From a bacterium (lineage in GTDB: Bacteria; Patescibacteriota; Minisyncoccia; Phycocordibacterales; UBA5272), in the NCBI GenBank assembly GCA_023267635.1, contig JAHFMX010000003.1:26139-90138 (forward strand): a stretch of DNA of 64,000 nt, in the 5' to 3' direction. Of this stretch, positions 1,191 to 57,555 are shown in pieces. A program made the translations under genes and the position numbers. Within the stretch, counting starts at the first letter, position 1, and every line of letters begins with the position of its first letter. The notes under the pieces were generated by a model, which saw only the letters and a program-made list of their open reading frames with translations, was not told the DNA's origin and searched no databases.

Positions 1191-2549
1191 ATGGACATTA
1201 GTCAACTTAAACATTTCACCCAAGGTGACCCAAGCAAGGGGCCTTTCGTTCTTGTTCTGTATGACGGAGCACTGATTACGGCCGAAGATTTGGCCATGCT
1301 TCAAGGGCTGTATTCTCGTTCGCCACAGTCGGTGCTCGGACATCTGAAGAAGCTGGCCGAAGTCGGCTCCGGCAAGTTCATGGTTCAGTACTATGTCGGC
1401 TATGGACACAAATCAATCGGCGACTGCGGCGACACAGCTATCTTTATTGAAGGTGTTTCCATGCTGGTTGCCAAGGCGATTCAGGACTGGGCACTCTACT
1501 GCGGACAGGAGGTGTCTACGCGCTACCTGGACTTTGCTGTTGCGGTATTTATCAATCAGCTTGGACTGTCGGATGAAGAAAATCCACAGGAATGGTTGCG
1601 CAAGTTCTATGTCGACGCCATGCCTAAACTCAAGGAGGAGTTGAGGGTAAGGTATCCGATGCAGCCAGAAGAAAAGGAAGCTGTCTATGAGAAGGCGATT
1701 GCGGCTCGTGCATTTGATATCCTTCGTGCGTTTTTGCCCGCAGGTGCTGCAACCAATTTGTCGTGGACCACAAACCTTCGGCAAGCGGCGGATAAGCTTG
1801 GCTGGTTGCGAGCTCATCCACTTTCGGAAGTGCACAACATTGCCGACATGATCGAGAAAGCTTTGCAGCAGGCGCATCCGAATTCGTTCGGTCATAAGCG
1901 TTATGCAGCAAGCGAGGCATATCGCGAAGTTTGCATGGAAAAGGATTACTACTTCTCGCCGATGTATTGGAAGGAAGAAGTGATCCTCACCCGCAATACG
2001 CTTGATGCCAAGCTTGTGCTTGAACACGCTGAAGCGATAAGTTCGCGTCCAGCGCGGACAGAATTGCCGAAGCATTTGGCTGAAGCGGGGACGCTCCAAT
2101 TCGAGTTTGCTCTCGATTTCGGATCTTTCCGTGATATCCAACGGCAGCGGGCTGTGATTCAGCGTATGCCGATGCTAACAGCGAAGATTGGGTTCCATGA
2201 CTGGTATCTTGATCAGTTGGGACCTGAACTTCGTGCGAAGGCGGAGAAGCTTGTCCTGGAAATCAAGCACTGGTGGGAACGAAACGTGAGAAATCACGGA
2301 GAAGTTGCCCTCCAGTATTACCTTCCAATGGGGCAGCAAGTTGCTTGCCGTGTTACGGGGGACCTTCCAGCATTGGTGTATCTTGTGGAGCTTCGCTCTG
2401 GTTCTACTGTGCATCCCACACTTCGTGAAGTTGCGCAGGAAATAGGTAAACAGATCCGCGAGATCGGTGTTCCTGTCTACATCGATGAATCCGACATGGG
2501 TCGGTTTGATGTGAATCGGGGCACTCAGGACATTGTGGCGAAAGCTTAA
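1191..2549 (+). CDS. ThyX-like protein (putative divergent or tandem-domain FAD-dependent thymidylate synthase); markedly GC-rich
   Basis: RBS aggagg upstream; segment FLPAGAATNLSWTTNLRQAADKL resembles the ThyX LPxxxxTxxxWTxNxR block; canonical RHR...SxRY motif not seen; sits between dut and tmk. Confidence 0.35.
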   Translation: MDISQLKHFTQGDPSKGPFVLVLYDGALITAEDLAMLQGLYSRSPQSVLGHLKKLAEVGSGKFMVQYYVGYGHKSIGDCGDTAIFIEGVSMLVAKAIQDWALYCGQEVSTRYLDFAVAVFINQLGLSDEENPQEWLRKFYVDAMPKLKEELRVRYPMQPEEKEAVYEKAIAARAFDILRAFLPAGAATNLSWTTNLRQAADKLGWLRAHPLSEVHNIADMIEKALQQAHPNSFGHKRYAASEAYREVCMEKDYYFSPMYWKEEVILTRNTLDAKLVLEHAEAISSRPARTELPKHLAEAGTLQFEFALDFGSFRDIQRQRAVIQRMPMLTAKIGFHDWYLDQLGPELRAKAEKLVLEIKHWWERNVRNHGEVALQYYLPMGQQVACRVTGDLPALVYLVELRSGSTVHPTLREVAQEIGKQIREIGVPVYIDESDMGRFDVNRGTQDIVAKA

Positions 2550-2565
2550 TGACCTGAAATCTTTC

Positions 2566-2596
2566 AAACAGGCACCTTGACGGTGCCTGTTTTTTA
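2566..2596 (+). terminator. Rho-independent terminator
   Basis: aaacaggcacc ttga cggtgcctgtttttt. Confidence 0.55.
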
Positions 2597-2679
2597 TTTG
2601 TTTGTGGCATTGTTTCCTTTCCTGTAGGCTTGATATAGGTTCATTTTTAAATTATTGCCGAAAGGCGAAGGAGATTCTC

Positions 2680-3405
2680 ATGACTTCAGATATCGTTCCA
2701 GTAGCGAAATACGTTGTTATCGATGGGATCGACGGTGGGGGCAAAGGGACAATTTTTAAGAGAATTGAAAAGGAGTTCCCTCGTCCGCCGTCTGAAATGG
2801 GGTATGAAAAAATTTTGATGGAGGGACCTGTCGGTAAATACTCCATCATTACTCGTGAGCCAGGCGGCACACCTCTTGCTGAAAAGTTGAGGGGCATGAT
2901 TTTGAGTGACGTCATGTCTTCCTTTTCTGAGTTCTGCTTGTTTCTTGGACAGCGGGATGATGGTCGCAAGCAGGTGATTCATCCTGCTTTGGCGGGCGGC
3001 GTGAACGTTATTTCGGACAGGTCAGATTCAGCAACGTTCGCTTACCAATTGCGGGGACGACAACTTGATCATCTGGAAGATTTGTATTGGAAGACGCGCC
3101 CTATGATGGCACCTCTTCCGAGTTTGTACGTCTTTTTAGATCTCGATCCGCTTGTTGCTGCTCAACGTATGACTGGTCGAGGTAATGAGGCGGATAACTT
3201 CGAGAAGCAGAACACCGAGTTCTTCGAGCGTGTAAGGAACGGATTCAAGGAATTTGCACAGAAAGTTGAAGCACCCTGCCGCTTTGTGAATGCTGAGCAA
3301 GGAAAAGATGAAGTGGCAGAAGATGTGCTCAAGATCCTTCGCGAGCACATCGGTGTCGCTCCGAAGGTGGAAGCAAATATTTTTCCGCTTGAGCGGCGAG
3401 CGTGA
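2680..3405 (+). CDS. tmk: thymidylate kinase
   Basis: P-loop IDGIDGGGKGT and REPGGTPLAEKLR lid-region motif; RBS aaggag; start moved to the ATG at 2680 inside ORF 2602..3405. Confidence 0.85.
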   Translation: MTSDIVPVAKYVVIDGIDGGGKGTIFKRIEKEFPRPPSEMGYEKILMEGPVGKYSIITREPGGTPLAEKLRGMILSDVMSSFSEFCLFLGQRDDGRKQVIHPALAGGVNVISDRSDSATFAYQLRGRQLDHLEDLYWKTRPMMAPLPSLYVFLDLDPLVAAQRMTGRGNEADNFEKQNTEFFERVRNGFKEFAQKVEAPCRFVNAEQGKDEVAEDVLKILREHIGVAPKVEANIFPLERRA

Positions 3406-3469: not shown

Positions 3470-5224
3470 ATGAATTCGTACGAGACCATCAAAGACACAC
3501 TTGCAGAACTATGTCAGGAAAAAGGGGTTGAATCTTCTTTTTCTTTGGATATGCCAGAAGATAGTCTTCATGGTGATTACGCTACAAACGTAGCTTTTCT
3601 TCTTTCAAAACAAACAGGTGTGTCTCCCAAGGAAACTGCAGAGCAGCTTATCTCTACACTTATGACTGAGTTAGAAGATGTTGTAGAAAAAGCAGAAGTT
3701 GCTGGCCCTGGCTTTATTAATTTCTTTTTGAAAGATGACGTACGAACAGACGAAGCAGAATCAGTTGCGCTCAGTGATATCACAAACGTTGGCGGAAAAG
3801 GAAAAGTAATTGTTGAATATACCGACCCAAATCCATTTAAGCTTTTTCATATTGGACACCTTGTACCAAATGCGATTGGAGAGTCAGTCGCGCGTATCTA
3901 CGAGGCAGAAGGGTACGATGTAATACGAGTATGCTATCAGGGAGATGTTGGTATGCACGTTGCGCAGGCAATTTTTGGTATTCAGTGGAAGCTTGCTCAT
4001 GAAAATGAAAACAAAGAGATTGATCTGTTCTTTAACGATGAAACTGCACTTGTTCATAAAATACAATTTCTTGGCGCTTGTTACGCTCTTGGTAATACCA
4101 TGTTTACAGACGAAGAGCTGTATACCTTTGCAACATTAGAAGAGAAAAAGAACGCTTTTAAAGATATTAACAAAAAGATTTTTGAAAAGAGTGACTCAGA
4201 AATAAATCGTTTGTATGACCTCGGTAAGATGTGGAGCCTTGAGTACTTTGAAACGATCTATGAAAAACTTGGAACGCAGTTTGATCATTATATTTTTGAA
4301 AGCGAAGTTGGAAAAGATGGTGCTCAGATTGTTAAAGAGAATATCGGTACCATTTTCCACGAATCAGATGGGGCTGTTGTATTTAAGGGTGAAGATATTG
4401 GGCTGCATACTCGTGTATTCATAAACTCTCAAGGGCTTCCAACATATGAAGCGAAAGAATTAGGCAACACCTACAAGAAAGATCTTTTGGTCCCAGATTC
4501 AATCCTTTCTGTTGTGGTTACCGCAAATGAAGTCAATGAGTATTTTAAAGTTATGAAAGCAGTGTTTGAGCAAATTGATAAACCACTTGCTGATAAGTTA
4601 CTTCATGTTTCTCATGGCATGCTTCGTCTCCCAGAAGGGAAGATGTCATCTCGAAAAGGAAACGTGATTCCTGCAGAAGAGCTCATCGCCACAGTAAGTG
4701 AGCGTATTGCTGTACGATTGGAAGATATGAAGGTGCGAGAGGGACAGAAGGTGCAGCTTATTAACGATATTGCCGTTGGGGCAATTAAGTTTTCAATTCT
4801 TAAATCAGCCCCAGGGAAGGATATGATTTTTGATCTTGAGAAGTCTCTTTCGTTTGAAGGGGATTCAGGACCGTATCTTCAATACACACATGCTCGTCTC
4901 TCGGCGTTGCTTGATAAAGCAGAAGAAGCAGGAATCTCAATTGAGAGTTATGCGATAGAACATTCTGAACGAGAACTAGAGCAAGTTATCATTGGGTATA
5001 CACAAGTGCTACAGAAGGCGTACAAAGACATGGGTCCACATCACATCGTTCAGCACCTTCTTGTGCTTACTCGTGCGTTTAACAATATGTACGGTCGCGT
5101 GCAAATTGTGAATGAGGAGGATGCAGAAACTAGTGCGTATTACGTTATGTTAGCAACGGCTACCAAAAACATCTTGGCGCACGGACTCTATACACTCGGC
5201 ATTGTCGCTCCAAGTCGAATGTAG
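3470..5224 (+). CDS. argS: arginyl-tRNA synthetase
   Basis: Class I HIGH (HIGHLVP), MSSRKG KMSKS-like motif, N-terminal Add-1 domain, DALR-type C-terminus. Confidence 0.9.
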   Translation: MNSYETIKDTLAELCQEKGVESSFSLDMPEDSLHGDYATNVAFLLSKQTGVSPKETAEQLISTLMTELEDVVEKAEVAGPGFINFFLKDDVRTDEAESVALSDITNVGGKGKVIVEYTDPNPFKLFHIGHLVPNAIGESVARIYEAEGYDVIRVCYQGDVGMHVAQAIFGIQWKLAHENENKEIDLFFNDETALVHKIQFLGACYALGNTMFTDEELYTFATLEEKKNAFKDINKKIFEKSDSEINRLYDLGKMWSLEYFETIYEKLGTQFDHYIFESEVGKDGAQIVKENIGTIFHESDGAVVFKGEDIGLHTRVFINSQGLPTYEAKELGNTYKKDLLVPDSILSVVVTANEVNEYFKVMKAVFEQIDKPLADKLLHVSHGMLRLPEGKMSSRKGNVIPAEELIATVSERIAVRLEDMKVREGQKVQLINDIAVGAIKFSILKSAPGKDMIFDLEKSLSFEGDSGPYLQYTHARLSALLDKAEEAGISIESYAIEHSERELEQVIIGYTQVLQKAYKDMGPHHIVQHLLVLTRAFNNMYGRVQIVNEEDAETSAYYVMLATATKNILAHGLYTLGIVAPSRM

Positions 5225-5289
5225 TAGCCTGTTTACCTTTATCAATTAGTGAGGTATTATAAAGTCATAGCAGTGACGGGACCAATCAC

Positions 5290-5485
5290 CCCCGAGCTTC
5301 AGGAAGAACACCCAGCCCCAGTTTTGGAAACAGTGAAACAAAACTGGGGCTGGGTAAGTAGAACCTATCAATGAGGGGATAGAAATATCCTAAAAACAAG
5401 GTGGTACCACGATTTCAAACATGAAACTCGTCCTTGGAAAATAATAGCAATATTGTTTTCTGTGGACGAGTTTTATTTATTTACA
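5290..5485 (+). promoter_or_regulatory. T-box riboswitch leader upstream of ileS
   Basis: T-box consensus-like caaGGUGGUACCACG at 5397..5411 followed by terminator hairpin actcgtcc/ggacgagt (5426..5471) and U-run; 16-bp perfect hairpin 5310..5355 upstream. Confidence 0.55.
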
Positions 5486-5490
5486 CATCT

Positions 5491-8400
5491 ATGTCTGACA
5501 ATACTTTACCCAAACCAAAAACAATAAACGAGAAAGAACAGGAAACGCTTCTTTTCTGGCAACAGAATGACATCTTCGAGAAGTCAGTAGAAAATCCTGC
5601 AAGCGAAATACCGAAAGGGTCATTCTCTTTTTATGATGGGCCACCATTTGCTACAGGGCTTCCTCATCACGGACATATTCTCGCTGGAACAATCAAGGAT
5701 GCTATTCCTCGGTATCAGACAATGAAAGGTAATTCTGTTCGTCGTATTTGGGGGTGGGATTGTCACGGGCTTCCTATTGAGAATCTTATTGAAAAGAAAT
5801 TAGGTCTTGCTTCAAAAAAAGACATTGAAGCATTTGGAATTGATAAGTTCAATCAAGATGCATTTAATTCAGTGCTTCAGTATGAAGAAGAATGGAAAAA
5901 AGTTGTTCCACGAGTTGGACGTTTTGTTGATATGGAGCATGCCTACAAAACAATGGATTCAACGTATACAGAAAGTATTTGGTGGGCATGGAAAACATTA
6001 TACGAAAAAGGACTTGCCTATGAGGGGTACAAGATAATGCATATCTGTCCGAGATGTGAGACAACACTTGCTCAATCTGAGGTGGGTATGGAGTACCACG
6101 ATGTAACTGATCTTTCAGTAACTGCAAAGTTTGAACTGGTGGACGAACCAGGGACATACGTTCTTGCGTGGACTACAACACCATGGACACTTCCAGGAAA
6201 CACAGCGCTCGCACTTTGTGAGACCGCTCAATATATAAAGGTATTAATTGAGGGAATGGAAGGAATGTATGTTCTTGCTAACGAGAGAAAAGAAGACGTA
6301 TTAAAAGATATGAAGTATGAAGTGAAAGAAATGTTTGCAGGTTCAACGCTCATTGGAAAATCATACAAGCCAGTATTCCCATATTTCGTAGATAAAGAAA
6401 TTGATAATAAAGAAAATATCTGGAAAATCTGGCACGCTGATTTTATTACGCTTGATACTGGAACAGGTGTTGCACACGAAGCTCCAGCCTTTGGAGCAGA
6501 AGACATGGATCTTGCAAAGTTGCACAGAATTCCAGTTATCAAACACGTGAAGATGGATGGAACATTTACAACCGAGGTGATTGATTTTGTTGGAATGAAG
6601 GTAAAGCAAAAAGATGATACACAGTCAGCTGATATTGAAATTATTAAGTATCTAGCTCATAATGGAAAACTTTTTGAGAAGCATAAAATTATTCACTCAT
6701 ATCCACTTTGCTGGCGATGTAAGACGCCACTCCTTAATTACGCTACATCTTCATGGTTTGTTGATGTTCCTAAAATGAAAGAGAAACTTCTCTCAGAAAA
6801 TGAAAATATTGGTTGGACTCCGTCACATATTAGAGATGGAAGATTTGGTAAGTGGCTTGAAGGTGCTCATGAGTGGGCGGTATCACGCTCACGATATTGG
6901 GGCGCTCCTCTTCCTGTGTGGAAAAATGAAGCCGGAGATATGAAAATCATTGGCTCACTTAAAGAGCTTGCTGCACTGAATAAAAATAAACCAAAGAATA
7001 CGTATTTTGCTATTCGTCATGGCGAAGCGCAGAGTAATATTAATCGAGTGTTGGATAGTTATGGTGACCCACACAACCACCTTACTGAAACTGGTAAAGA
7101 ACAAGCTCGTCACGCTGGGCACTTTGCAAAAGAACAAGGGATAGATATTATCGTGTATTCACCATTGCTTCGAACAGAAGAAACAGCTCGCATTATAAAA
7201 GAGATGTGTGGAGCAGAATCAGTTGTTGATAAGCGGCTTCGTGAGTTTGATACGGGAATCTTTTCGGGCACAAGTGTTGATGAGTTCCATGTACGTCAGC
7301 GAGCTGATTTCATGGATCTCGACACTAAATTACCAGAAGGGGAATCTCATCGTGATCTCATGAACCGCACTATGCAGGTTCTTGAGGATTGTGAAAAAGA
7401 ATATGTGGGTAAAAAAATTCTCTTCGTAACACACGGATCTCCTGTGTGGATGCTTGAAGCAGCAGCTCATTTGCGTACTGATGAGGAAATTGTTGCGGAC
7501 ATGATGATGCACGAAGACACATCTCCTGCGCACGCCCATGTGGTGCCTGTGCATCCTCAACTCGTTCCGCGAGATGAAACAGGGGCTGTTAATCTTCACC
7601 GTCCGTATATTGATGAAATAGAACTGGAAATTGATGGAGTAATCTATAAACGAATTGGAGATGTTTTTGATTGTTGGTTTGAATCTGGGTCTATGCCGTT
7701 TGCGTCACTTCACTATCCATTTGAGAACAAAGAAATCTTTGAAAAGAACTATCCAGCTGAATTTATTGCTGAAGGATTAGATCAAACACGTGGATGGTTC
7801 TACTCGCTTATTAACTTAGGGGTTGGATTGTTTGATAAGGCTCCATATAAGCACGTTATTGTGAACGGTCTTGTGATGGCGGAATCAGGTCTTAAACTTT
7901 CAAAGAGCGATAAAAACTATACTGACCCTATGGAGCTTGTGGAGAAGTACGGGGCAGACGCAATGCGATACGCACTTCTTTCGAGTCCTGTGGTTAAGGG
8001 AGAAAATATCTTGTTTACAGATAAGACCGTGGAGGATGTGTACAAAAAAGTAATTTCTCGATTGGAGAACGTTCTCTCTTTGTATGAAATGAATAAAGAA
8101 GAAGGGGTGCAAGCGGTGGCCACTTCTACAAATGTTTTGGATAGATGGATTATTTCAAGGGTTCATGAGGTCGTTGCGAGAGTGACTAAAGGATACGACA
8201 CGTATATGCTTGATGAAGCTACGTACCCAATCGACCAACTTATTGATGACCTGTCTGTTTGGTATGTCAGACGCAGTCGAGACCGCCTTAAAGGAGATGC
8301 TGGTGCTGAAGAAAAGAAACAAGCATACGAAACAGTAACGTACGTACTGCTTACTCTTTCAAAAGTAATTGCTCCAGTAATGCCTTTCATTGCTGAAAGG

Positions 8401-8931
8401 GTGTACAGTACTGTTGGAGGAGAAAAAGAATCAGTGCATCTGGAAGTCTGGCCTCAGACTTTCTCAGTAGATACTGAATTATTGGTTACTATGAAAAAGG
8501 TTCGCGAACTTGTAACGGTAGCGCTGTCACTTCGCACACAAGCAAAGATTGCTGTAAGACAACCACTCCAGAAACTTATTCTTAAGGAGAAGGTTGGAGA
8601 GGAGTATGTTTCAACAATTCTTGACGAGCTTAACGTAAAGGAAATTTCATTTGATGAAACTCAGACAGAAGCTTGTGTACTTGATACTACGGTGACAGAC
8701 ATACTGCAAGCAGAAGGAGATGTTCGTAATCTTATGCGCGCGGTTCAAGATGCTCGCAAGGATAAAGGACTCACGCCGAAAGATTCAATTGTTCTTACTA
8801 CTGAGTTTGTGGTCCCAGAACAGTTCAAAGCTCTTCTCATGAATACGTGTCGAATTAGTTCAATAGAAAAGGGAAGCGGAACATATACAGCTGAAACATC
8901 AACGGGCACTATCTCCTTTGATATCCAATAA
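5491..8931 (+). CDS. ileS: isoleucyl-tRNA synthetase, type 2 (eukaryote/archaeal-like), with an inserted histidine phosphatase (PGAM-like) domain
   Basis: PPFATGLPHHGHIL HIGH region, WTTTPWTLPGN, HSYPLCWRCKTPL, KLSKS; ATG at 5491 preferred over the TTG at 5434 because 5434..5490 lies inside the T-box terminator; insertion carries RHGE...N and THGS motifs. Confidence 0.9.
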   Translation: MSDNTLPKPKTINEKEQETLLFWQQNDIFEKSVENPASEIPKGSFSFYDGPPFATGLPHHGHILAGTIKDAIPRYQTMKGNSVRRIWGWDCHGLPIENLIEKKLGLASKKDIEAFGIDKFNQDAFNSVLQYEEEWKKVVPRVGRFVDMEHAYKTMDSTYTESIWWAWKTLYEKGLAYEGYKIMHICPRCETTLAQSEVGMEYHDVTDLSVTAKFELVDEPGTYVLAWTTTPWTLPGNTALALCETAQYIKVLIEGMEGMYVLANERKEDVLKDMKYEVKEMFAGSTLIGKSYKPVFPYFVDKEIDNKENIWKIWHADFITLDTGTGVAHEAPAFGAEDMDLAKLHRIPVIKHVKMDGTFTTEVIDFVGMKVKQKDDTQSADIEIIKYLAHNGKLFEKHKIIHSYPLCWRCKTPLLNYATSSWFVDVPKMKEKLLSENENIGWTPSHIRDGRFGKWLEGAHEWAVSRSRYWGAPLPVWKNEAGDMKIIGSLKELAALNKNKPKNTYFAIRHGEAQSNINRVLDSYGDPHNHLTETGKEQARHAGHFAKEQGIDIIVYSPLLRTEETARIIKEMCGAESVVDKRLREFDTGIFSGTSVDEFHVRQRADFMDLDTKLPEGESHRDLMNRTMQVLEDCEKEYVGKKILFVTHGSPVWMLEAAAHLRTDEEIVADMMMHEDTSPAHAHVVPVHPQLVPRDETGAVNLHRPYIDEIELEIDGVIYKRIGDVFDCWFESGSMPFASLHYPFENKEIFEKNYPAEFIAEGLDQTRGWFYSLINLGVGLFDKAPYKHVIVNGLVMAESGLKLSKSDKNYTDPMELVEKYGADAMRYALLSSPVVKGENILFTDKTVEDVYKKVISRLENVLSLYEMNKEEGVQAVATSTNVLDRWIISRVHEVVARVTKGYDTYMLDEATYPIDQLIDDLSVWYVRRSRDRLKGDAGAEEKKQAYETVTYVLLTLSKVIAPVMPFIAERVYSTVGGEKESVHLEVWPQTFSVDTELLVTMKKVRELVTVALSLRTQAKIAVRQPLQKLILKEKVGEEYVSTILDELNVKEISFDETQTEACVLDTTVTDILQAEGDVRNLMRAVQDARKDKGLTPKDSIVLTTEFVVPEQFKALLMNTCRISSIEKGSGTYTAETSTGTISFDIQ

Positions 8932-9486
8932 ATGGCTATTGAAAAATACACCACAAAAGCAATTGTCATAGAATCCTTTGATCAAGGGGAGCATGACAGG
9001 GTGTATAAGGTGTTTACTCGTGAGTTTGGATTACTCATGGTTCACGCAAAAAGTGTACGTAAATTGGAGAGTAAGTTACGAGCCCATATAACTCCGCGAT
9101 CTATTGCGCTCATCACGCTTGTGCAAGGACGTGAAGTGTGGAGATTAACTGGGGCAGAAGAAGCAGAAAGTGTGGATGAAATGTTACATGAAGTAACCCA
9201 TCTTATTAAACGGTTCATTCGTGGTGAAGGTGCACACAAAGCACTCTACGATAGATTGATTCAGTTTCTTTCTGAAGCTTCTGTGTTCGATAAACAAAAA
9301 GCAAGATTACTCGTGCACTATATTGTGCTTGTTGAACTTGGATATGCTGATGCAAAAGTAATTGGTGCAAAAGATATTAAAGAGTACATTGATTGGAATG
9401 TAGGTGATTTGTATACACACCTTCTTCTTTCATATACACAGGTTCGAGCACATGTGCATGAAGTATTGAAGGAAACACAGTTATAA
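8932..9486 (+). CDS. recO: DNA repair protein RecO-like (short form)
   Basis: N-terminal OB-fold pattern KAIVIESFDQGEHDRVYKVFTREFGLLMVHAKSVRK matches the RecO N-terminus; start overlaps the ileS stop. Confidence 0.5.
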   Translation: MAIEKYTTKAIVIESFDQGEHDRVYKVFTREFGLLMVHAKSVRKLESKLRAHITPRSIALITLVQGREVWRLTGAEEAESVDEMLHEVTHLIKRFIRGEGAHKALYDRLIQFLSEASVFDKQKARLLVHYIVLVELGYADAKVIGAKDIKEYIDWNVGDLYTHLLLSYTQVRAHVHEVLKETQL

Positions 9487-23052: not shown

Positions 23053-23101
23053 CCACAAAATAAAAATAACCCCAATAGTTGGGGTTATTTTTATTTTGTG
23101 G
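23053..23101 (-). terminator. perfect 21-bp hairpin terminating ssrA (part of a longer inverted repeat 23011..23118)
   Basis: ccacaaaataaaaataacccc aatagtt ggggttatttttattttgtgg. Confidence 0.6.
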
Positions 23102-23487
23102 AAGCGGAGGGGTTCGAACCCTCGTGTATATCGGAACAATATATGACTCTACTAGTGTGTAGTTTGCTTCGTTGTAATCCTTATCTATAAGAAACAAACG
23201 AAAGCAGATAAGGATGTGCATGAATTATTTCAGTGAGTACCTCATGCGGAGTACTAACCTACATCTACTGTCATTATGCCGTTACCCTTCCCGTAGATGC
23301 GAAAAGATACGACACCAGGTCGGTCTAAATTAGACGAACGCTGGAACGAGTCCATTCACGTATGGTGAACGGATCGCTGTTGCAGAATTGTTTGCAACGT
23401 GTGTACATGAATGTTTACGAGTACTCATGCAGTCTCGACACAGCACATACAATCATTATCGATATATCAAAGCCAAAGTACGCTCCC
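23099..23487 (-). ncRNA. ssrA: probable tmRNA (SsrA)
   Basis: Minus-strand 5' GGGAGCG pairs with 3' CGCUUCC to give a 7-bp acceptor stem with G3-U70 and discriminator A; T-arm GAGGG-UUCGAAC-CCCUC; no long ORF in about 390 nt; immediately downstream of smpB; candidate tag frame from resume GCA at 23395. Confidence 0.6.
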
Positions 23488-26849: not shown

Positions 26850-26922
26850 TGCATCCACCTGGACTCGAACCAGGGACCAGTTGTGTATAAGACAACGGCT
26901 CTACCAACTGAGCTATGGATGC
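26850..26922 (-). tRNA. tRNA with anticodon UAU (reads AUA; tRNA-Ile, UAU-type), no encoded CCA
   Basis: Cloverleaf by hand: acceptor GCATCCA/TGGATGC, D-arm TAGCTCAGTTGGTAGAGC, anticodon stem GTTGT/ACAAC with loop CTTATAC, T-arm CCTGG-TTCGAGT-CCAGG. Confidence 0.7.
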
Positions 26923-46846: not shown

Positions 46847-47857
46847 ATGAACAAGAACATAAAAATACACACCCAATCCAGTGGCAAAAATGAGAAGCCT
46901 ATTATTTATCAAGCTGCAAATGGTGCTGTTGAGCTGCGTATGGATATGAGTAAAGAGACAGTGTGGGCAAACCTCAATCAAATTGCAGATATTTTCAATG
47001 TTCAGAAAGCAGCAGTTTCAAAACACCTTAAAAATATCTTTGAGTCTGGGGAGTTAGATCAGAGGGGAACTGTTTCCAAAATGGAAACAGTTCAAATTGA
47101 AGGAAAACGTTCAATTATTCGAGAAATTGAGTATTATAATCTTGACGCCCTTATTTCCGTTGGCTACAGAGTAAATTCAAAGCAGGCGACTGAATTCCGT
47201 AAATGGGCAACGAAGACTCTCAAGGAACATATTACAAAAGGGTATACGATTAATAAGAAAATGATAGGTAAAAACTGGGAAGAATTTTCTCATGCAGTAG
47301 AATCTGCTAAGAAATTCCTTCCTAAAGAATATCAGGCGCTCACAGGTGGACAGGCACTTGATTTGGCCGAACTCTTTGCTCGTACATGGCTATCACTTGA
47401 TGCCTATGACAAACAGTCTCTTGTGATTAAGAAACCGACCAAGAAAAATGTAAAGCTCACTGCGAAGGAGTTACTCACCGCGCTTTCTGATCTGAAATCA
47501 AAGCTCATTACAAAAGGTGAGGCAACAGAACTTTTTGCGACAGACAGACACAAGGAGAGTCTAGAAGGAATTGTTGGGAATGTCATGCAGTCACTTGGAG
47601 GAAAGTATGTATATGAGACTGTAGAAGCAAAAGCAGCACATTTGCTGTACTTTGTTGTGAAGAATCATCCATTTGTCGATGGCAATAAACGAAGCGGTGC
47701 GTTTGCCTTTGTGTGGTTTTTGTAAAAAACTAAATGTTTAGATGTCGGACGTATGACACCTGAAGCACTCACCGCACTCACACTTTTGGTTGCGGAAAGT
47801 AATCCTAGAGACAAGGAAAATATTGTAGCCCTTATTATGAAATTAATAGAGAGATAA
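46847..47857 (+). pseudogene. RhuM-family / Fic-Doc protein interrupted by an in-frame TAA (47723..47725)
   Basis: RhuM-like block IEYYNLDALISVGYRVNSKQATEFRKWAT; Fic/Doc motif HPFVDGNKRSGAF; reading continues in the same frame after the TAA for 43 more codons of Doc-like sequence. Confidence 0.6.
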
Positions 47858-47952
47858 AACTTCCACTTTTCACGTTAATAGAAAAAGAAATGTTAAAGGC
47901 TACTATAAAGCGGCGCCTGTGCCGGTTTATATTGTTTATATTTATACACAGC

Positions 47953-47996
47953 CTCTACAAGGGTACCCCTTGCTAGCAAGGGGTACCCTTGTAGAG
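47953..47996. repeat. 44-bp perfect palindrome
   Basis: ctctacaagggtaccccttgc ta gcaaggggtacccttgtagag; lies 26 bp upstream of the intact secD start. Confidence 0.9.
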
Positions 47997-48021
47997 TGAA
48001 TAGTGATAGAATTGGCGCACT

Positions 48022-49431
48022 ATGAAGCAGAAAATTAAGGCATTGTGGGTACTGGCAGTGGTTGTGGCGCTTGGCGTCTTTTTACTAAAAGGGGATAAAG
48101 ATTTCGTTTTAGGTCTTGATTTAGCAGGTGGATCAGCTCTTACTTACAGAATTGAGACGTCATCTCTCCCAGAAGGCAGCGATGTTTCTGAAAGTGTAAA
48201 CGCACTTCGAGATGTTGTTGAACGTCGAGTAAACCTCTTCGGTGTTACAGAAGCAGGTGTTATGACTTCATACAGTCGTCTTGCTTCTGAATGGAGACTC
48301 GTTGTTGAACTTCCTGGTGTTACTGATGTCAAACAAGCGGCAACACTTATCGGAGAAACTCCTGTCCTTGATTTTCGTACAGCAAAGAAAGACTCTGTAG
48401 TTGGAACTTCTACAGCGGAATTTATTGCAGCGTACGAGCAAACCGCTCTTACTGGTAGATACCTTAAGCGCTCCGCTCTTGTCTTTGACCCAACTACTAA
48501 TCGCCCGATGGTTGAACTTACGTTTGATGATACTGGTGCAAAACTTTTTGCACAGATCACTAAAGCAAATATTGGAAAACAAGTTGCTATCTTCCTAGAC
48601 GGCATGCCTATCTCTGTACCTACTGTTAATGAAGAAATTACAGGCGGGAAAGCCGTAATCTCAGGAACATTCACCATTGAAGAAGCTCGTGTATTAGTTG
48701 GAAGACTAAACGCTGGAGCACTTCCACTCCCAATCACACTCGCTGGAACATCAGTTGTTGGACCATCTCTCGGAGCTGTGTCTGTAGAGAAGGGTATCAA
48801 TGCTGCTATTATCGGCTTCCTCCTCGTTTCAGCTTTCATGCTTCTTTGGTACCGTTTACCTGGACTTGTAGCGGTTGTAGCGCTCGTTTGTTACACCATT
48901 ATCAACCTTGTTGTGTTTAAGGTTGGAATTTCTCCTGCAATGATTATTATCACAGCTACATGTGTTGGATTAGCAATTGCTGTTCACAGATCAATACTAT
49001 TCGGTATTCCTGTTGCGTACGTTATTCTTGCCCTCATTCCAGGTGGACTTGTTCCAGTAACACTTACTGCAGCTGGAATTGCAGGGTTCATCATTTCAGT
49101 TGGTCTTGCAGTGGACGCAAACGTTCTCACATTTGAACGTATGAAAGAAGAGCTTCGAAACGGAAGAAGTCTTAAGGACGCAATCGATATTGGATTCACG
49201 CGTGCGTGGACCTCAATCCGTGATTCGCATACAGCGGCTGTTATTGTGGCAGTTGTTCTCTACATGTTCGGAACATCAATCGTGAAAGGATTTGCGATTA
49301 CATTCTTCCTAGGAGCAATTCTTTCTCTTGTGTCTGCGCAAATGATTACTCGTGTATTCCTCGCGTCACTTGTTCCAGCAAAGTTGGGAAGATTTATGAG
49401 GTTCTTGTTTGGTAGCGGCTTTAGCAAATAA
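48022..49431 (+). CDS. secD: protein translocase subunit SecD
   Basis: N-terminal TM, periplasmic domain, C-terminal six TM helices with SecD/SecF signature. Confidence 0.85.
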   Translation: MKQKIKALWVLAVVVALGVFLLKGDKDFVLGLDLAGGSALTYRIETSSLPEGSDVSESVNALRDVVERRVNLFGVTEAGVMTSYSRLASEWRLVVELPGVTDVKQAATLIGETPVLDFRTAKKDSVVGTSTAEFIAAYEQTALTGRYLKRSALVFDPTTNRPMVELTFDDTGAKLFAQITKANIGKQVAIFLDGMPISVPTVNEEITGGKAVISGTFTIEEARVLVGRLNAGALPLPITLAGTSVVGPSLGAVSVEKGINAAIIGFLLVSAFMLLWYRLPGLVAVVALVCYTIINLVVFKVGISPAMIIITATCVGLAIAVHRSILFGIPVAYVILALIPGGLVPVTLTAAGIAGFIISVGLAVDANVLTFERMKEELRNGRSLKDAIDIGFTRAWTSIRDSHTAAVIVAVVLYMFGTSIVKGFAITFFLGAILSLVSAQMITRVFLASLVPAKLGRFMRFLFGSGFSK

Positions 49432-49441
49432 TTAAATACGT

Positions 49442-50311
49442 ATGTTTATCGTCAAATACAAATCAATCTTTATCGGTCTCGCAGTTGTTCTTGTGCTTAC
49501 ATCGTTTGCTCTTATGGCAAAGTTCGGCATTCGACAGGGAGTTGATTTCACAGGTGGAACAGTTATCGAAACAAGATACGTTGCTGATATGCCAGAGACT
49601 ATCGATGTCGCAGGATTGCAGGCACAGGACATTAGAAGTTTCAAAACAGGGACATCAACGTATAAGTTTATTTCTACAAAGTCATATGACGAACTTCGAC
49701 CTGTCCTTATCGAAGCTGTAGCGCAGGGAAAGTATATATATGAGGAGACACAGGTAAACACAGTTGGTCCAACCCTTGGTCTTGAGCTTAAAAGAAAAGC
49801 AGGTATCGCGATTGCGGTTGTGGTACTTGCTATTCTAGCCTTTATTGCTTTCTCATTCCGTGAAGTATCACGCCCAGTGTCATCATGGAAGTATGGAGTT
49901 ATCGCGATGGTAACGCTCCTTCATGACATTATCGTGCCAACAGGAGTGTACGTCCTCCTCTCGTACTACTTTGGAGCAGAAATCGACACGCTCTTTGTAA
50001 TCGCTCTCCTTACAATATTGGGTATTTCTATCTCTGACAAGATTGTGGTGTTCGACAGAATTCGTGAAAACCTTAAGAGTGGGAATATCAAAAACTTTGA
50101 TGACGTTGTAGGGGTTAGTCTCAAGCAGACGTTTACTCGTTCAATCAATACATCAGTTACAGTGATCCTAGCTCTCGTAGCGTTATTCTACTTCGGCCCA
50201 GAGGCAACAAAGTTCTTCGCACTCACTCTTACCATTGGTATGATTGTGGGAACATATTCTTCAATCTTCGTAGCATCTCCTTTGCTTACGGTGTGGAATA
50301 AGGGTAAGTAA
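49442..50311 (+). CDS. secF: protein translocase subunit SecF
   Basis: DFTGGT motif and SecF TM bundle; immediately follows secD. Confidence 0.85.
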   Translation: MFIVKYKSIFIGLAVVLVLTSFALMAKFGIRQGVDFTGGTVIETRYVADMPETIDVAGLQAQDIRSFKTGTSTYKFISTKSYDELRPVLIEAVAQGKYIYEETQVNTVGPTLGLELKRKAGIAIAVVVLAILAFIAFSFREVSRPVSSWKYGVIAMVTLLHDIIVPTGVYVLLSYYFGAEIDTLFVIALLTILGISISDKIVVFDRIRENLKSGNIKNFDDVVGVSLKQTFTRSINTSVTVILALVALFYFGPEATKFFALTLTIGMIVGTYSSIFVASPLLTVWNKGK

Positions 50312-50349
50312 ATAGCTAATAGCACACAGGAAATAGTGAATACAGTAAG

Positions 50350-50376
50350 CCGCCCCGTAGGGGCGGCTTTTGGTTT
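50350..50376 (+). terminator. Rho-independent terminator after secF
   Basis: gccgcccc gta ggggcggc tttt. Confidence 0.6.
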
Positions 50377-50524
50377 CTGTCAGGGCGCTAAGGCGAACTA
50401 CGGGGTTGGACCTTATAGTTCAATATCTCCGCATTGCGGTACGGTAACGATTTTGTCTATTCGGTGTTTGTTGTATATGCCATACTTTTAGTGTATATGG
50501 AGCAGGTGGTTAATTTATAAAAAT

Positions 50525-51724
50525 ATGGAACCAATAAAAACAACAAGTAGTTCTTCTTATAAAAGAATAGGCACCATTGCCTTAAGTGTAATTGTTGTAT
50601 TTTCTCTTTTATATATTTATATATATAATGCATCAAAAAATAAAACCCCTAAAAATGGAACTTCAAATGAAGAGCGTGTTAATGCTTATCGAATGAGTCT
50701 GCTTAGCAATGAGCCAGCCGCTCTTCAGGAAAATTTTGTAAAGGATGTTAAATTAGGGGTTAACGATATGTACACAAAATCAGATGTGTATTTTATCACA
50801 CATAGATTTTTTGATAATAATGGAAATATATATGAGATATATGATTTTATAGAACTTCACCCAGAACTTGCTTTCTTAAAAGAAGCCGAGACTATTTATC
50901 CAGGAGTCTTTGAAAAAATAAAAAACAGAACCCTCTCTTCTATTGCTACAGATTCTGGTTACTATGCTTATCTTGCATATGTAGAAATCTTAATGAAATA
51001 TGGCTATACAGATATTGCAGCAGTCGGAACTGCTGCTGGTCAGTATGCTAAACTTGCTTATGTTACAACAGAAATAGCAAAAGAAATGCCTAAAAATGAA
51101 GGGGTTGAACGTTCAAAATACGCAAAAAGAAATATTAAAAAATCTGCAGATTTTTTAGTGTTTGCTACAAAAGATGTTGAAAGAATACTCAACGGAGAAT
51201 TAACTTCAAAGGATATCATCCCTCAAGATATTCTCGTGGGACTTAATCAATATGCTGCCGCGCTACGATATCGTGAAGCGCTCGGGTTTAAACATTTTTC
51301 ACCTAAAATGGTAGAGTCACTTAACAAAATTGGAGTTAAGGCATCTTCAATAAAAACACCAGAACAGATCTTTGCTTTCACAACAGAGTACTCTCATCGC
51401 TTTGTGCCTGAATTAAATCTATTTACGTCTCTCTTAAATGCTTCGACACTGGCCATTTTAGCATCAAGCACTCCTCAGGATATAAAAGTTGCCCTGTATC
51501 CTCTTCTTGATTTTGATACAAAGAATACTAGAAATGCTAATTTTTTAAAGATAGGAATTATTCCTAAAATATTAGACTCAAGATTTGAGAAAAAGCCTGA
51601 TAACATAGGGGAAACCGCAATGGATATTTATAGCAAAAGAAATACCTTAAGACTTGCAAACAAAGTCCCAGAATTCAAAGCCTGGCTCATGTTAAATGGG
51701 TGGGTTGAAGCTGATTTTAAGTAA
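50525..51724 (+). CDS. copy 2 of membrane-anchored paralog A
   Basis: Identical to 39523..40722. Confidence 0.5.
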   Translation: MEPIKTTSSSSYKRIGTIALSVIVVFSLLYIYIYNASKNKTPKNGTSNEERVNAYRMSLLSNEPAALQENFVKDVKLGVNDMYTKSDVYFITHRFFDNNGNIYEIYDFIELHPELAFLKEAETIYPGVFEKIKNRTLSSIATDSGYYAYLAYVEILMKYGYTDIAAVGTAAGQYAKLAYVTTEIAKEMPKNEGVERSKYAKRNIKKSADFLVFATKDVERILNGELTSKDIIPQDILVGLNQYAAALRYREALGFKHFSPKMVESLNKIGVKASSIKTPEQIFAFTTEYSHRFVPELNLFTSLLNASTLAILASSTPQDIKVALYPLLDFDTKNTRNANFLKIGIIPKILDSRFEKKPDNIGETAMDIYSKRNTLRLANKVPEFKAWLMLNGWVEADFK

Positions 51725-52856
51725 TTTCTTGAAAGCTAAACTACTAAAAAGTCTAAAAAAGAGGAAAAATGTAGCCCTCCTATGTCTAGCGGTATTGTTT
51801 CTTACGTCAGGGGTGCTTTTCTATGAGAAAGTTATTTTGTCACAAATTAGAGCAACAGAGTATCAAAACGCCATTCAGGAAAATCTTTTCCAAAATAACC
51901 CACAATCACTTCAAGCTTTTTTTGTAAGAGACATTGCAAATGGTGTGAATGATATGTATACAAAATCAGTTGCGCATTTTCTTGTCCGTAGATATTTTAA
52001 TAACGGTGGAAATATTTACGAGGTATTTAATTATGTGGATAGCCACAAAGAATTAGCTTTCTTAAAAGAAGCCGAGACTATTTATCCTGAAATGTTTGAA
52101 TTTGTGAAAAATAAACGATTACCTTTTACATATTCTGATCAAGGTATGTACGCTTCTCTTGCTTATTTTGAAATCTTAGAAAGAAATAATTATGCAGATA
52201 TTTCAACACTCGGGACAGTTGCAAATCAGTATGCAAAAATGGCCTATTACAAAGAGCTTATTCTAGACAATCAGTCTAAAGGTAAAGATCTAGATTACCC
52301 AAAATATAGTAAAAGCCAAGTTCAAAACGACACCAATAAAGCTATTCTTTTTATAAAAAAATCTCAAGGAACCATCACAAAAATTGTTGAAGAAAAATTA
52401 ACCGCAAAAGACATTCCTAGTTTTAATATCTTGATTGGTGCCGTGGAGTATGCTTCTGCTTTAAGATATTTTCAAGCCCTAAATGTTGATTTCTCTTCAG
52501 TAATTTCATCAGAAAAAGTTTTCGTCTTCGCAGTATCGTATTCGTATCACTTTCTCCCAGAGGCTTATTTATCTACGTCTCTTACAAATGCTGCGACTCT
52601 CCTTTTGATTGAATCAACTAACAGCAATCAGCTACGATCTGCAATCTACCCCTTTCTTGACCTTAGTTCAAAGGTAAATAAAAAAACAGGAAGTATTTTA
52701 GATAAGGTTTTGAAAGCAAAATTTAAAGAATCTGTATCAAGATTTGAAGATTTGAATATATATAGCACTATTAATATAGTAAAAATTGCAAACATAGTCC
52801 CAGAATTCAAAGCCTGGCTTATGTTAAATGGATGGGTTGAAGCTGATTTTAAGTAA
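51696..52856 (+). CDS. copy 2 of membrane-anchored paralog B
   Basis: Identical to 40694..41854. Confidence 0.45.
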   Translation: MGGLKLILSNFLKAKLLKSLKKRKNVALLCLAVLFLTSGVLFYEKVILSQIRATEYQNAIQENLFQNNPQSLQAFFVRDIANGVNDMYTKSVAHFLVRRYFNNGGNIYEVFNYVDSHKELAFLKEAETIYPEMFEFVKNKRLPFTYSDQGMYASLAYFEILERNNYADISTLGTVANQYAKMAYYKELILDNQSKGKDLDYPKYSKSQVQNDTNKAILFIKKSQGTITKIVEEKLTAKDIPSFNILIGAVEYASALRYFQALNVDFSSVISSEKVFVFAVSYSYHFLPEAYLSTSLTNAATLLLIESTNSNQLRSAIYPFLDLSSKVNKKTGSILDKVLKAKFKESVSRFEDLNIYSTINIVKIANIVPEFKAWLMLNGWVEADFK

Positions 52857-52871
52857 TTTCTTGAAAGCTAA

Positions 52872-53579
52872 CTAACTATTTTTAATAGTTATTCTTGGAA
52901 TTGTTATACCATTTGAGAGTGAAAGTATGAGCTCTATTGTGTCAACAGTTCTTTCAACGTACATAATCTCAAGAGCTTCCTTTCTTAGGGTATCTTTTGT
53001 ATATAATTTTCTATTTACCTTCTCGTAAAGTATTTCAGTTACTGGTATTGAGTCCTTTTTTAGATTTTTTGTTAAAAATCTACTAAACGAAGTTACTGTA
53101 CCATTGCTTAAACTATTTATTAGTCCTGTATTTTTTGAACGAAAATCACTATACAAATTCATGTTAATAATTAATCCACCTGCCTGCTTTTTCATTAAAG
53201 GTATCACAGCTTTAGAAACAAGTATTGGCCCTAAAAGATTCATCTCTAGAAGTTTTTTTATTTCTTTTTCATTGCTATTTTCTAGTTTAGTATCAGCAAC
53301 TAAATAACTACCGTTAATCAAACAATCAATTGATCCGTAGGTTTCCATGATTTTTTGCAGGACACTTTCTATGTTTAAGAGACTTGTTGTATCCATTGCA
53401 ATACCCTCACACTTTACTCCTTGAGTAGTTTTTACACCCTGTTCCACAGGGTGAGGTGTACATATTATTACTCTATACTTAGAAGTAAGTCTTTTTGCTA
53501 AAGCTTTTGCAAGATCGTCTATGCCATTGATAATAAGTATAACCTTCATATTCAATAGTTTACCATATTGAGATGGCAA
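52872..53579 (-). CDS. copy 2 of SDR-like protein
   Basis: Identical to 41870..42577. Confidence 0.45.
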   Translation of the reverse strand: MPSQYGKLLNMKVILIINGIDDLAKALAKRLTSKYRVIICTPHPVEQGVKTTQGVKCEGIAMDTTSLLNIESVLQKIMETYGSIDCLINGSYLVADTKLENSNEKEIKKLLEMNLLGPILVSKAVIPLMKKQAGGLIINMNLYSDFRSKNTGLINSLSNGTVTSFSRFLTKNLKKDSIPVTEILYEKVNRKLYTKDTLRKEALEIMYVERTVDTIELILSLSNGITIPRITIKNS

Positions 53580-53854
53580 TAAATAAAATCTTCACAGCAA
53601 GCTGACGAGATGTCATGTGTCGTTGGCAGGGGATCAATATCCAAATCCCCGATCTGTTTATGGTCGACAGACATCCGGGGGGGGGTATTTGTTACACAGT
53701 GAGTTGTATTGGAGTTAGACTATAAAAAAATGGATTAAAAATCAAATAAACCTTGTAAGGCTTTGATTAAAGTAGTGTACTTTGAATACTGTTATTTTAT
53801 GTTGATTAGTGTGTGGTATGTTAGTATGTAGAAGTAAGTTCTTTTAAATAGGAG

Positions 53855-55285: not shown

Positions 55286-55362
55286 TAGGAGGTGTTTCCT
55301 TTAGTAAGGGGCGATATTTAATTTATATCGCCCTTTTTATTTTTTTAAGTTATAATTAAAAA

Positions 55363-56055
55363 ATGAACATCCTAAAATTTTTTAGTAAAAGAAAAAAAGA
55401 AAAAGACTTCACCTACAAGTATTATTGTTTATTAGACATCAATACTAGCGGTTTATTAGTTATAAGAAAAAATTTTCAGTGCATGAATTTTCTTAAAGAA
55501 TATACACTAGACACCACTTTGGTTGGGCTTTTTTCCTCAAATTTTTTTGAGGAAAAGTTTTTCTCTAGGTTAGAAACTTCATCTGACTGTTACCGTTTTC
55601 GTTGGGATTCTAGTAAAAATCTATTTGTGAAAAATAAAAATATTACTAATTTATTACAGGAAAAATCTTTTCTTGCTAGTACGAAATATGATCTGTTGGA
55701 GGATATTTCTTCACGGATAATCTCTTTTAGAGGTCGTGTAAAAAAAACTTTACCTTATCAAGAAACAATATATTTAACAAAAAAACATCAAGCAGAGAGA
55801 TTTAAGGACAGAGGATATCCTGAGAGTGAATTGCTAGAATACCCCTATGTTTTACAATATGCTGATTTGAAAAAAATATCACTCAAACAAGCAGCAGATA
55901 CGATATTACTCAAATCAAGTATTGATGATGGAATGTTAGCAAAAACAGAGCTTTTACGACTCAAGTATTTTAATAAAGTAAGAGAATCCTCTTCTAAGGA
56001 AGAATTAGAAAATACGCACAAAGAATTTTTGTTAGATTTTAATATTAAAATATGA
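55363..56055 (+). CDS. copy 2 of hypothetical protein
   Basis: Identical to 44361..45053. Confidence 0.4.
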   Translation: MNILKFFSKRKKEKDFTYKYYCLLDINTSGLLVIRKNFQCMNFLKEYTLDTTLVGLFSSNFFEEKFFSRLETSSDCYRFRWDSSKNLFVKNKNITNLLQEKSFLASTKYDLLEDISSRIISFRGRVKKTLPYQETIYLTKKHQAERFKDRGYPESELLEYPYVLQYADLKKISLKQAADTILLKSSIDDGMLAKTELLRLKYFNKVRESSSKEELENTHKEFLLDFNIKI

Positions 56056-57146: not shown

Positions 57147-57213
57147 ACTACTTTAAATTTTGGAATTTGTACTATATGTGATGTAAATCTTTTTAGGATA
57201 GAATACGGCCACT

Positions 57214-57390
57214 ATGAAGCAGAAAATTAAGGCATTGTGGGTACTGTTAGCAGTTGTGGCGCTTGGCGTCTTTTTACTAAAGGCTAATCCATCTGCTGGA
57301 TCTCTTGCAGATGGACGCCCGTCCGCCGTAGGCGGATTAGGGGGAGGGTTCGTTTTAGGTCTTGATTTAGCAGGTGGATCAGCACTCTAA
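57214..57390 (+). pseudogene. copy 2 of secD 5' fragment
   Basis: Identical to 46212..46388. Confidence 0.7.
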
Positions 57391-57555
57391 CTAAATAACC
57401 ATTGATTTTCTGAAACGAAAAGCACGACACCGAAGGTGTTGTGCTTTTTAATTTATTGCGCGTAGCTTTTCTTTAGGTATTAACTGCTTGGGTGTTGATG
57501 TATTGGTTAAAGTAGTGTACTCTCCTGTAAAGTACTAACTTTACAGGAGAGTACA

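Follow-up and report, generated by a model that had tools for sequence, protein, structure and literature searches.

A histidine phosphatase nested in an isoleucyl-tRNA synthetase

The subject of this work is an ileS gene, predicted to encode a type-2 isoleucyl-tRNA synthetase (IleRS) with a histidine phosphatase nested in its catalytic body, on contig JAHFMX010000003.1 of a patescibacterial genome (assembly GCA_023267635.1); the whole stretch analysed, positions 26,139 to 90,138 of that contig and 64,000 nucleotides (nt) long, is referred to below as the window. A single uninterrupted open reading frame (ORF), 5434..8931 on the forward strand, spans the gene, and the amino-acid (aa) numbers of the domain are those of this ORF, counted from the TTG at 5434. 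In the Pfam scan the tRNA-synt_1 match (PF00133) was split in two by His_Phos_1 (PF00300), followed by Anticodon_1 and DUF5915. The PF00300 core covered aa 526-679 (nt 7009-7470); it scored 111.8 bits (E=4.2e-32; cut-off 21.7) within the whole protein, and 115.9 bits (E=2.4e-33) when the insert alone was searched. The continuous frame and this match confirmed the claim of an earlier note on the same DNA, that a histidine phosphatase domain is inserted in frame into the IleRS catalytic body. The position proposed there, 7000-7581, was accurate to a few codons of the envelope drawn by a family profile built from orthologues (6994-7590; Table 1), and the motifs FAIRHGEAQSN, ILFVTHGSPV and NLHRPYIDE, together with the intervening Arg and Glu (Arg580 and Glu604), were found where it had placed them.

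The size of the insertion was assessed from the spacer between the P-x-P-x-W and DCWFESG motifs, which is 249 aa in the window ileS. For 45 IleRS genes that lack the domain its median length was 55 aa, vs. 249 aa for 41 single-copy genes and about 435 aa where two copies sit at this place; these medians indicate a net insertion of about 195 aa that comes in discrete units, close to the 190 aa or so estimated earlier. The site itself had been taken for a short linker and proved to be something else, the CP3 subdomain, a structurally variable element of 50-60 aa that carries a zinc knuckle in many relatives. CP3 joins CP2 to the second half of the Rossmann fold, its topology differs in each solved IleRS, and zinc is bound only in the Thermus enzyme (PMC7191050). 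In our alignment the CxxC...CxC knuckle around the insert was kept by most phosphatase-bearing orthologues, and all four of its cysteines were lost from both CP3 halves (6904-6993 and 7591-7689) in the window's clade. About 35 residues upstream of the insert sits WAVSRSRYWG, whose yeast counterpart, the CP2-3 linker ARDWNVSRNRYWG, lines the pocket for the CCA end of the tRNA (PMC7955072).

Table 1. Features of the ileS locus, in window coordinates
Feature	Position (nt)	Strand	Basis or remark
argS, upstream of ileS	3470..5224	+	ORF; member of conserved argS-(phosphatase)-ileS-recO block
T-box-like leader of ileS (below Rfam threshold)	5264..5438	+	RF00230 local search
Conserved T-box sequence GGTGGTACCACG	~5401-5412	+	RF00230 alignment
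Terminator-like hairpin, then U-rich run to ~5483	5421..5476	+	RNA fold
ileS, predicted type-2 IleRS with nested phosphatase	5491-8931	+	1146 aa counted from ATG 5491
HIGH-type signature HHGH, Rossmann fold	5665..5676	+	Motif search
WTTTPWT, CP1 editing-domain motif	6169..6189	+	Motif search
WAVSRSRYWG, CP2-CP3 linker	6874..6903	+	Motif search
CP3 N-terminal half APLPVWKNEAGDMKIIGSLKELAALNKNKP; zinc-knuckle CxxC lost	6904..6993	+	Alignment
Nested histidine-phosphatase domain (branch 1), aa 521-719, ~199 aa	6994..7590	+	Envelope from orthologue-built family profile
FAIRHGEAQSN	7006-7038	+	Motif search
RHG motif: Arg528, His529 (predicted phospho-accepting nucleophile), Gly530	7015..7023	+	Conservation
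Asn535	7036-7038	+	Motif search
Arg580, second phosphate-pocket arginine, in PLLRTEE	7171..7173	+	88/88 conserved
Glu604, predicted general acid, in RLREFDTG	7243..7245	+	Glu 81/88, Asp 7/88
ILFVTHGSPV	7417-7446	+	Motif search
His667-Gly668, second catalytic His, in FVTHGS	7432..7437	+	His 88/88 conserved
NLHRPYIDE	7591-7617	+	Motif search
CP3 C-terminal half, return to Rossmann fold (NLHRPYIDE ... DCWFESG)	7591..7689	+	Motif search, alignment
KMSKS-type signature KLSKS	7894..7908	+	Motif search
recO-like gene, downstream of ileS	8932..9486	+	ORF; member of argS-(phosphatase)-ileS-recO block

Fold and family of the insert and its host

When the whole chain was modelled with AlphaFold2 (pLDDT 90.9, pTM 0.83), the IleRS body was intact and most of the insert had a pLDDT of 90-98. 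Modelled alone, the insert gave a complete histidine-phosphatase fold (pLDDT 95.8, pTM 0.92). A chance match is excluded by the E-values together with this confident fold prediction. Foldseek matched the insert model, at a probability of 1.00 and a TM-score of 0.7-0.77, to PspA, PhoE, Rv2419c and dPGMs; the nearest solved folds were PspA (4ij5/4ij6), PhoE (1h2e/1ebb), Rv2419c, Rv3214 and HFP (9mmh), plus the dPGM/BPGM mutases, and at the level of sequence the small phosphatases were matched with E-values from 7.5e-11 to 1e-6. Keeping in mind that the mutases scored about as well in Foldseek as the phosphatases, structure alone does not separate the two.

We therefore turn to curated equivalog models for the distinction. 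All dPGM equivalogs remained below their cut-offs for the insert (19-44 bits vs. cut-offs of 82-421), with TIGR01258 at 31.4 (cut-off 81.7), NF010713 at 27.6 (305) and NF002339 at 44 (316), and the archaeal dPGM model NF038349 gave 81 (225). The named small-phosphatase equivalogs were likewise below cut-off: GpmB at 88.2 vs. 261, CobC (TIGR03162) at 78.3 vs. 162.9, PspA at 66.7 vs. 350 and SixA at 38 vs. 74.5. Since all these scores fall far short, the insert is placed among the phosphatase-type members of the superfamily, no substrate being assignable to it, and is not regarded as a PGAM; the label "PGAM-like" given earlier thus holds for the superfamily and fails for the mutase. The best reading of these comparisons is that the insert is a small phosphomonoesterase of branch 1 (PhoE/PspA/GpmB/CobC-like), predicted to be active, and not a mutase.

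The whole protein scored above the NCBIfam ileS equivalog TIGR00392 (814.5 bits vs. a cut-off of 621.4), in two stretches parted by the insert. The best structural matches of the IleRS body were the type-2 enzymes 8c8u, 7d5c and 1ile, with target-normalised TM-scores of 0.81-0.83. Type-2 matches (8c8u, 8c8v, yeast IleRS and 1ile) had E-values of about 1e-87 to 1e-71 at 30-32% identity, vs. about 1e-58 to 1e-53 at 21-22% identity for the type-1 structures 8c9e and 1qu2, and by these model-based comparisons the window IleRS is of type 2 rather than type 1. Two special classes were considered and rejected: the MupA/MupB mupirocin-resistant IleRS (650-656 bits in the exception models vs. a cut-off of 1900) and the IleRS carrying a GNAT domain (NF040702, 301.4 bits vs. 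1999, with no acetyltransferase match in Pfam).

Conservation of the catalytic pocket

Residue conservation was counted over 88 complete orthologous copies at the window's own site (site 1a below). The Arg and His of the RHG motif, the second Arg and the second His were present in all 88, and the acid was Glu in 81 and Asp in 7. The identical catalytic pattern was found in copies at other IleRS sites and in valyl-tRNA synthetase (ValRS). Outside the pocket the insert has diverged more than its host: compared with its closest relative among 50% clusters (P0128) it was 39% identical, vs. 74% and 61% for the N- and C-terminal parts of the IleRS core, and across 50 relatives with at least 65% identity the mean column conservation was 0.85 in the N-terminal core, 0.61 in the insert and 0.72 in the C-terminal core. 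On this pattern of conservation the pocket appears to be the sole constrained part of the insert. A basic tRNA-binding surface was looked for on the embedded copies and not found (pI 7.1 vs. 7.3 in free-standing ones, p=0.46).

Five relatives, embedded and free-standing ones among them (P0016, P0018, P0024, P0044 and P0226), had lost the cap segment that separates the acid from the second His and retained the catalytic core; such cap-less orthologues would have a more open active site.

Recurrence across relatives

A search spanning the junctions returned dozens of patescibacterial IleRS fragments with both PF00133 and PF00300, at 38-48% identity. When the full protein was used as query, PF00300 was present in all of the best 120 cluster representatives, which were 1138-1214 aa long and 64-95% identical to it; the named ones among them were Nomurabacteria, Parcubacteria or Pacebacteria. 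The scan of GTDB species genomes was a sample, with 600 type-2 ileS loci among the matches listed. About 24 of these span roughly 1 kb at the site with the domain, and each is a single intact ORF, whose product has 1150-1220 aa when one copy is present and, in Peribacteria/Peregrinibacteria, 1470-1490 aa when there are two; the carriers included Paceibacteria/Minisyncoccia, Yanofskybacteria, Peregrinibacteria/Peribacteria and others. The insert is thus lineage-wide, a point that the earlier note had proposed to check by alignment. The argS-ileS-recO synteny of the window was seen again in independent assemblies: ArgRS homologues held the equivalent position in six loci (L001, L002, L086, L088, L093 and L094), and RecO_N was found 3' of ileS in three (L001, L088 and L094).

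Two further observations concern individual relatives. In two assemblies from one study (ERZ250394xx; L001, 4745-8243, and L002, 4470-8047) the phosphatase-bearing ileS was called as three to four overlapping ORFs, which are probably long-read frameshift errors and not a truly broken gene. In a metagenome-assembled genome in GTDB (JAYWFX010000094.1, L040), an IleRS with no recognisable phosphatase had a CP3 spacer of 182 aa, about 127 aa above the usual length, with no Pfam match; this extra segment aligned weakly (1.7 bits), but in register, with the last third of the phosphatase profile, another residue standing in place of the catalytic His, and may be a decayed phosphatase remnant.

Several insertion sites, several copies and a second host

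An exhaustive HMMER search with the insert retrieved 11,739 relatives at E<=1e-3, of which 832 reached E<=1e-10, and the best 150 matches, together with those from earlier searches, were placed on the IleRS core. Copies occurred at no fewer than four IleRS sites: before HRPYID (site 1a, that of the window, with 99 copies assigned in the mapped sample), between HRPYID and DCWFESG (site 1b), after WFESGSMPYAS (site 2), and in the helical region after KMSKS (site 3). Each IleRS carried one or two copies, every one with an intact catalytic set. A second host was found in a ValRS fragment with four copies (P0121), and in a dedicated search PF00300 was present in about 25 ValRS clusters, whose sources were Gracilibacteria, Doudnabacteria, Colwellbacteria and other Patescibacteria. 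Among the best 150 matches, the large hosts that were checked were IleRS or ValRS.

Two proteins, P0171 (locus L003) and P0203, have copies at sites 2 and 3 and none in CP3. In a rough neighbour-joining tree they group with IleRS from outside Patescibacteria, and the trait may for this reason extend past that group; the surroundings of P0171 hold biosynthetic genes (POR, SufBD, PurA and DAHP synthase) and a gene for an SLH-domain protein. Regarding the origin of the domain, identity comparison of 191 copies separated neither embedded from free-standing ones nor one site from another (about 32-34% identity throughout).

CP3 as a general hotspot for other foreign domains was considered and is unsupported, as the GNAT of one candidate (P0033) lies elsewhere and the "TMP-TENI" match of the other (P0076) is no more than a fragment of 32 residues where a partial ORF begins. 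In P0033, an IleRS fragment, the GNAT acetyltransferase is inserted upstream of the GRFGKWLE block, which fits the NCBIfam NF040702 architecture.

A free-standing form next to ileS

The closest free-standing relatives are 187-208 aa long, 35-42% identical to the insert, and as similar to it as other embedded copies are. Genomic context was taken for eight of them, seven of which had flanking sequence. In six of the seven the phosphatase gene directly adjoins ileS, with gaps as small as 1-3 nt, and argS lies directly upstream of the phosphatase in four of these six. One arrangement, with gaps of 3 and 1 nt, was smpB-infC-rpmI-rplT-argS-phosphatase-ileS(931 aa)-x-recO (L088/L089; x stands for an unnamed gene); the others were argS-phosphatase-ileS(984 aa)-x-recO (L094/L095), argS-x-phosphatase-(23S_rRNA_IVP)-ileS (L093), argS-phosphatase convergent with ileS (L086), and a phosphatase immediately 5' of ileS (L084/L085 and L096). 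In L093 the gene that interrupts the otherwise tight phosphatase/ileS pair encodes a four-helix-bundle protein (23S_rRNA_IVP, 2526-3140). The ileS genes checked at such loci lacked the CP3 insert: PF00133 was contiguous across the site in L086, the spacer was 54 aa in L093, and the products in L088 and L094 were only 931 and 984 aa.

Because the two-gene form occupies the same chromosomal block as the window, the nested domain and the neighbouring gene can be viewed as two states of one association, in the sense of a "Rosetta stone". In the neighbour-joining tree of IleRS cores, a rough one that lacks bootstrap support, proteins with the phosphatase adjacent, nested or absent were interleaved, and this patchy distribution suggests repeated relocation or loss of the phosphatase.

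The ileS leader and other features of the window

The earlier note had called the synthetase T-box-controlled. What speaks for this is a canonical GGUGGUACCACG box which, with the GA/K-turn segment, aligned to RF00230 with high posterior probability, and a strong terminator-like hairpin (5421-5476; -31.4 kcal/mol, z=-6.2 against 200 shuffles). What did not stand is formal membership: no T-box was found in the ileS leader at the Rfam gathering threshold, RF00230 giving 31.5 bits vs. the 93 required (E=1.4e-5 in a 271-nt search), with stem I heavily truncated. T-box control of the window ileS is consequently no more firmly stated here than as plausible from these sequence features. The same hairpin bears on the start of the gene, as the TTG at 5434 chosen by the ORF finder falls within it, which makes ATG 5491 the preferred and probable true start. 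A T-box core was seen only 5' of ileS, in the window, L008 and several loci of Firmicutes and Actinobacteria, and was looked for and not found upstream of the phosphatase gene in the two-gene form; it is general neither to phosphatase-bearing ileS genes nor to that form.

Elsewhere in the window, the sole matches at Rfam gathering threshold were a tmRNA gene (23096-23487, reverse strand, 77.9 bits) and a tRNA gene (26850-26922, reverse strand). An 11.0-kb tandem repeat (39484-50521 and 50486-61523, offset 11,002 nt, 99.8% identity with 20 mismatches) doubles all of its ORFs and could be a recent genuine duplication or an assembly artefact.

Interpretation

Cumulatively, we favour, with some confidence, the view that the window gene encodes a bifunctional type-2 IleRS in which a catalytically competent small histidine phosphatase folds independently within CP3, and that it represents the fused state of a conserved two-component unit whose phosphatase activity serves IleRS and ValRS. 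By the established mechanism of the family, His529 would attack a phosphomonoester to give a phospho-enzyme, with the phosphate held by Arg528, Arg580 and His667 and the leaving group protonated by Glu604. The fusion and the tight adjacency recur specifically with IleRS and ValRS, so the activity would be tied to the function of these synthetases and would not be an unrelated passenger. Since several sites and the free-standing form all work, exact geometry would not be needed, and co-localisation or stoichiometry may be what matters. Considering that only the pocket is conserved and that there is no basic surface, the substrate is probably small and diffusible; with low confidence, we suggest a phosphomonoester of nucleotide type that is connected with the aminoacylation cycle, or else a tRNA 3' end that bears a phosphate.

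Several observations weigh against this view. Catalysis is predicted from residue conservation and family precedent, and identical conservation would also be expected of a sensor that does no more than bind a ligand. Insertion sites that vary and a surface that is neither conserved nor basic speak against a precise action in cis on tRNA. One of the seven free-standing relatives, P0135, lies between adk and secY and not beside an aminoacyl-tRNA synthetase (aaRS) gene. Finally, neighbourhood evidence is weaker in compact Patescibacteria genomes, and the free-standing relatives sampled for it were eight.

The main rival is that an ordinary housekeeping phosphatase (acting, for example, on a sugar phosphate, phosphoserine or a cofactor precursor) was captured, in a streamlined genome, by an essential gene whose expression is high and constitutive; the two activities would then have no chemical relation, and all that the fusion secures would be expression. 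The characterised close structural neighbours of the insert (PspA, PhoE, Rv2419c and HFP) all act on small metabolites, its position is unfixed among four sites, its surface diverges rapidly with no basic patch, and the location of P0135 also fits such a capture. However, a terminal fusion or many different hosts would then be expected, and the association is instead specific and repeated: it involves IleRS and ValRS, the closest paralogue of IleRS, and takes the form of fusions at several sites and of tightly coupled neighbours in six of the seven free-standing cases sampled. We regard simple capture as unlikely, though it deserves to be taken seriously.

A bolder version of the favoured view is that in Patescibacteria the phosphatase gives class Ia synthetases a third catalytic site, one that acts on the aminoacylation cycle itself. 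One task might be "end-healing", in which tRNA-Ile or tRNA-Val that has been damaged, or modified by a toxin, is freed of a 2'/3'-terminal phosphate or pyrophosphate ahead of charging; another might be to destroy a phosphorylated nucleotide or an adenylate-mimicking inhibitor, with the neighbour-gene form doing likewise in trans. This proposal we consider doubtful.

Less likely than capture, and in our estimate rather improbable, is a non-catalytic module that performs no turnover and serves to regulate or stabilise IleRS, either as a structural element or by sensing a phospho-ligand, as would an allosteric switch that responds to a phosphorylated metabolite. A phosphate pocket would be kept for binding alone, and the domain replaces part of the variable CP3 (PMC7191050), whose zinc knuckle is lost in the window's clade. 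Binding alone does not, however, require the nucleophilic His and the acid Glu/Asp, which are also invariant (88/88); moreover, the free-standing orthologues, at 190-205 aa, are normal enzyme-sized proteins, and such a role would hardly account for chains with as many as four copies.

The chance that assembly or gene calling mis-joined a separate phosphatase gene into ileS is negligible: the insert has a slightly higher GC content (0.449 vs. 0.402) and a codon usage about 2.5 standard deviations from that of same-size windows of ileS, and the gene is fragmented in some long-read assemblies, but chimeric assembly, raised as a concern in the earlier note, is ruled out by the presence of the domain in all 120 closest relatives, from many independent samples and with one copy 95% identical, by the intact single ORFs in GTDB genomes, by the conserved argS-ileS-recO synteny, by GC at third codon positions that is effectively equal (0.34 vs. 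0.32), by conservation of the frame and of both junction motifs, and by the folding of the chain as one coherent protein in AlphaFold2.

The aaRS are among the best-studied enzymes, and extra catalytic domains in a bacterial class I body, the editing domain aside, are very unusual. Here a whole bacterial radiation couples a histidine phosphatase to IleRS and ValRS, be it nested at several sites, in up to four copies, or encoded by a tightly linked upstream gene, and the active site is intact in every form. This pattern points to an unrecognised need of translation or of nucleotide/tRNA maintenance in small-genome, host-dependent organisms. At present the proteins go by no other name than "class I tRNA ligase family protein", so that a phosphatase may be overlooked or wrongly assigned when the metabolism of Patescibacteria is reconstructed. 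The pair of fused and neighbouring forms offers a clean, testable handle, with one domain and one point mutant.

Comparison with known systems

The window protein belongs to the same family as the type-2 IleRS of Priestia megaterium (IleRS2, 8C8U), Thermus thermophilus (1ILE) and yeast (7D5C, 8WND), with which it shares the HIGH- and KMSKS-type motifs, CP1, CP2, CP3, the anticodon-binding domain and the DUF5915 C-terminal domain. In the solved IleRS, the longest target among which has 1061 aa, CP3 contains no inserted domain, whereas the CP3 of the window protein is broken by a phosphatase of 199 aa. A full-text search, outside whose coverage most subscription journals lie, found no publication on a histidine phosphatase in or beside an aaRS. 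The architecture is nevertheless already present in public databases, with precomputed Pfam matches under generic names of the kind quoted above. The earlier note was aware of no PGAM domain embedded in an aaRS catalytic core; the architecture is not rare, being lineage-wide and simply unremarked in the databases.

With PhoE/YhfR (1H2E, 1EBB), the phosphoserine phosphatase PspA (4IJ5), Rv2419c, Rv3214 and HFP (9MMH) the insert shares its fold, its size (about 190-210 aa) and the RHG/Arg/Glu/His-Gly set. Enzymes of the PhoE/PspA type are free-standing and have defined small-molecule substrates, whereas the window domain is nested in a synthetase and falls below all curated equivalog cut-offs. 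The superfamily and the chemistry of the catalytic His are also shared with dPGM/PGAM, but the insert is about 50 aa shorter than the mutases of 230-250 aa among its structural matches, and it has the phosphatase-type RLREFDTGxxxG where mutases carry "ERHYG".

The top NCBIfam match of the insert (90 bits) was the bifunctional RNase H/acid phosphatase RnhC/Rv2228c (NF005567), in which a phosphatase of this type is likewise joined to a nucleic-acid enzyme. In that protein the fusion is terminal and the partner is RNase H, and the insert, far below the cut-off of 326, is not a member of the family. Synthetases are recognised as preferred hosts of domain insertion (PMC13114784). Precedents for a second enzymatic domain nested in a class Ia catalytic body are the CP1 editing domain and the IleRS-GNAT architecture (NF040702); both differ from the arrangement described here, CP1 being a universal aminoacyl-ester hydrolase of a different fold, and the GNAT domain lying at a different site, upstream of GRFGKWLE.

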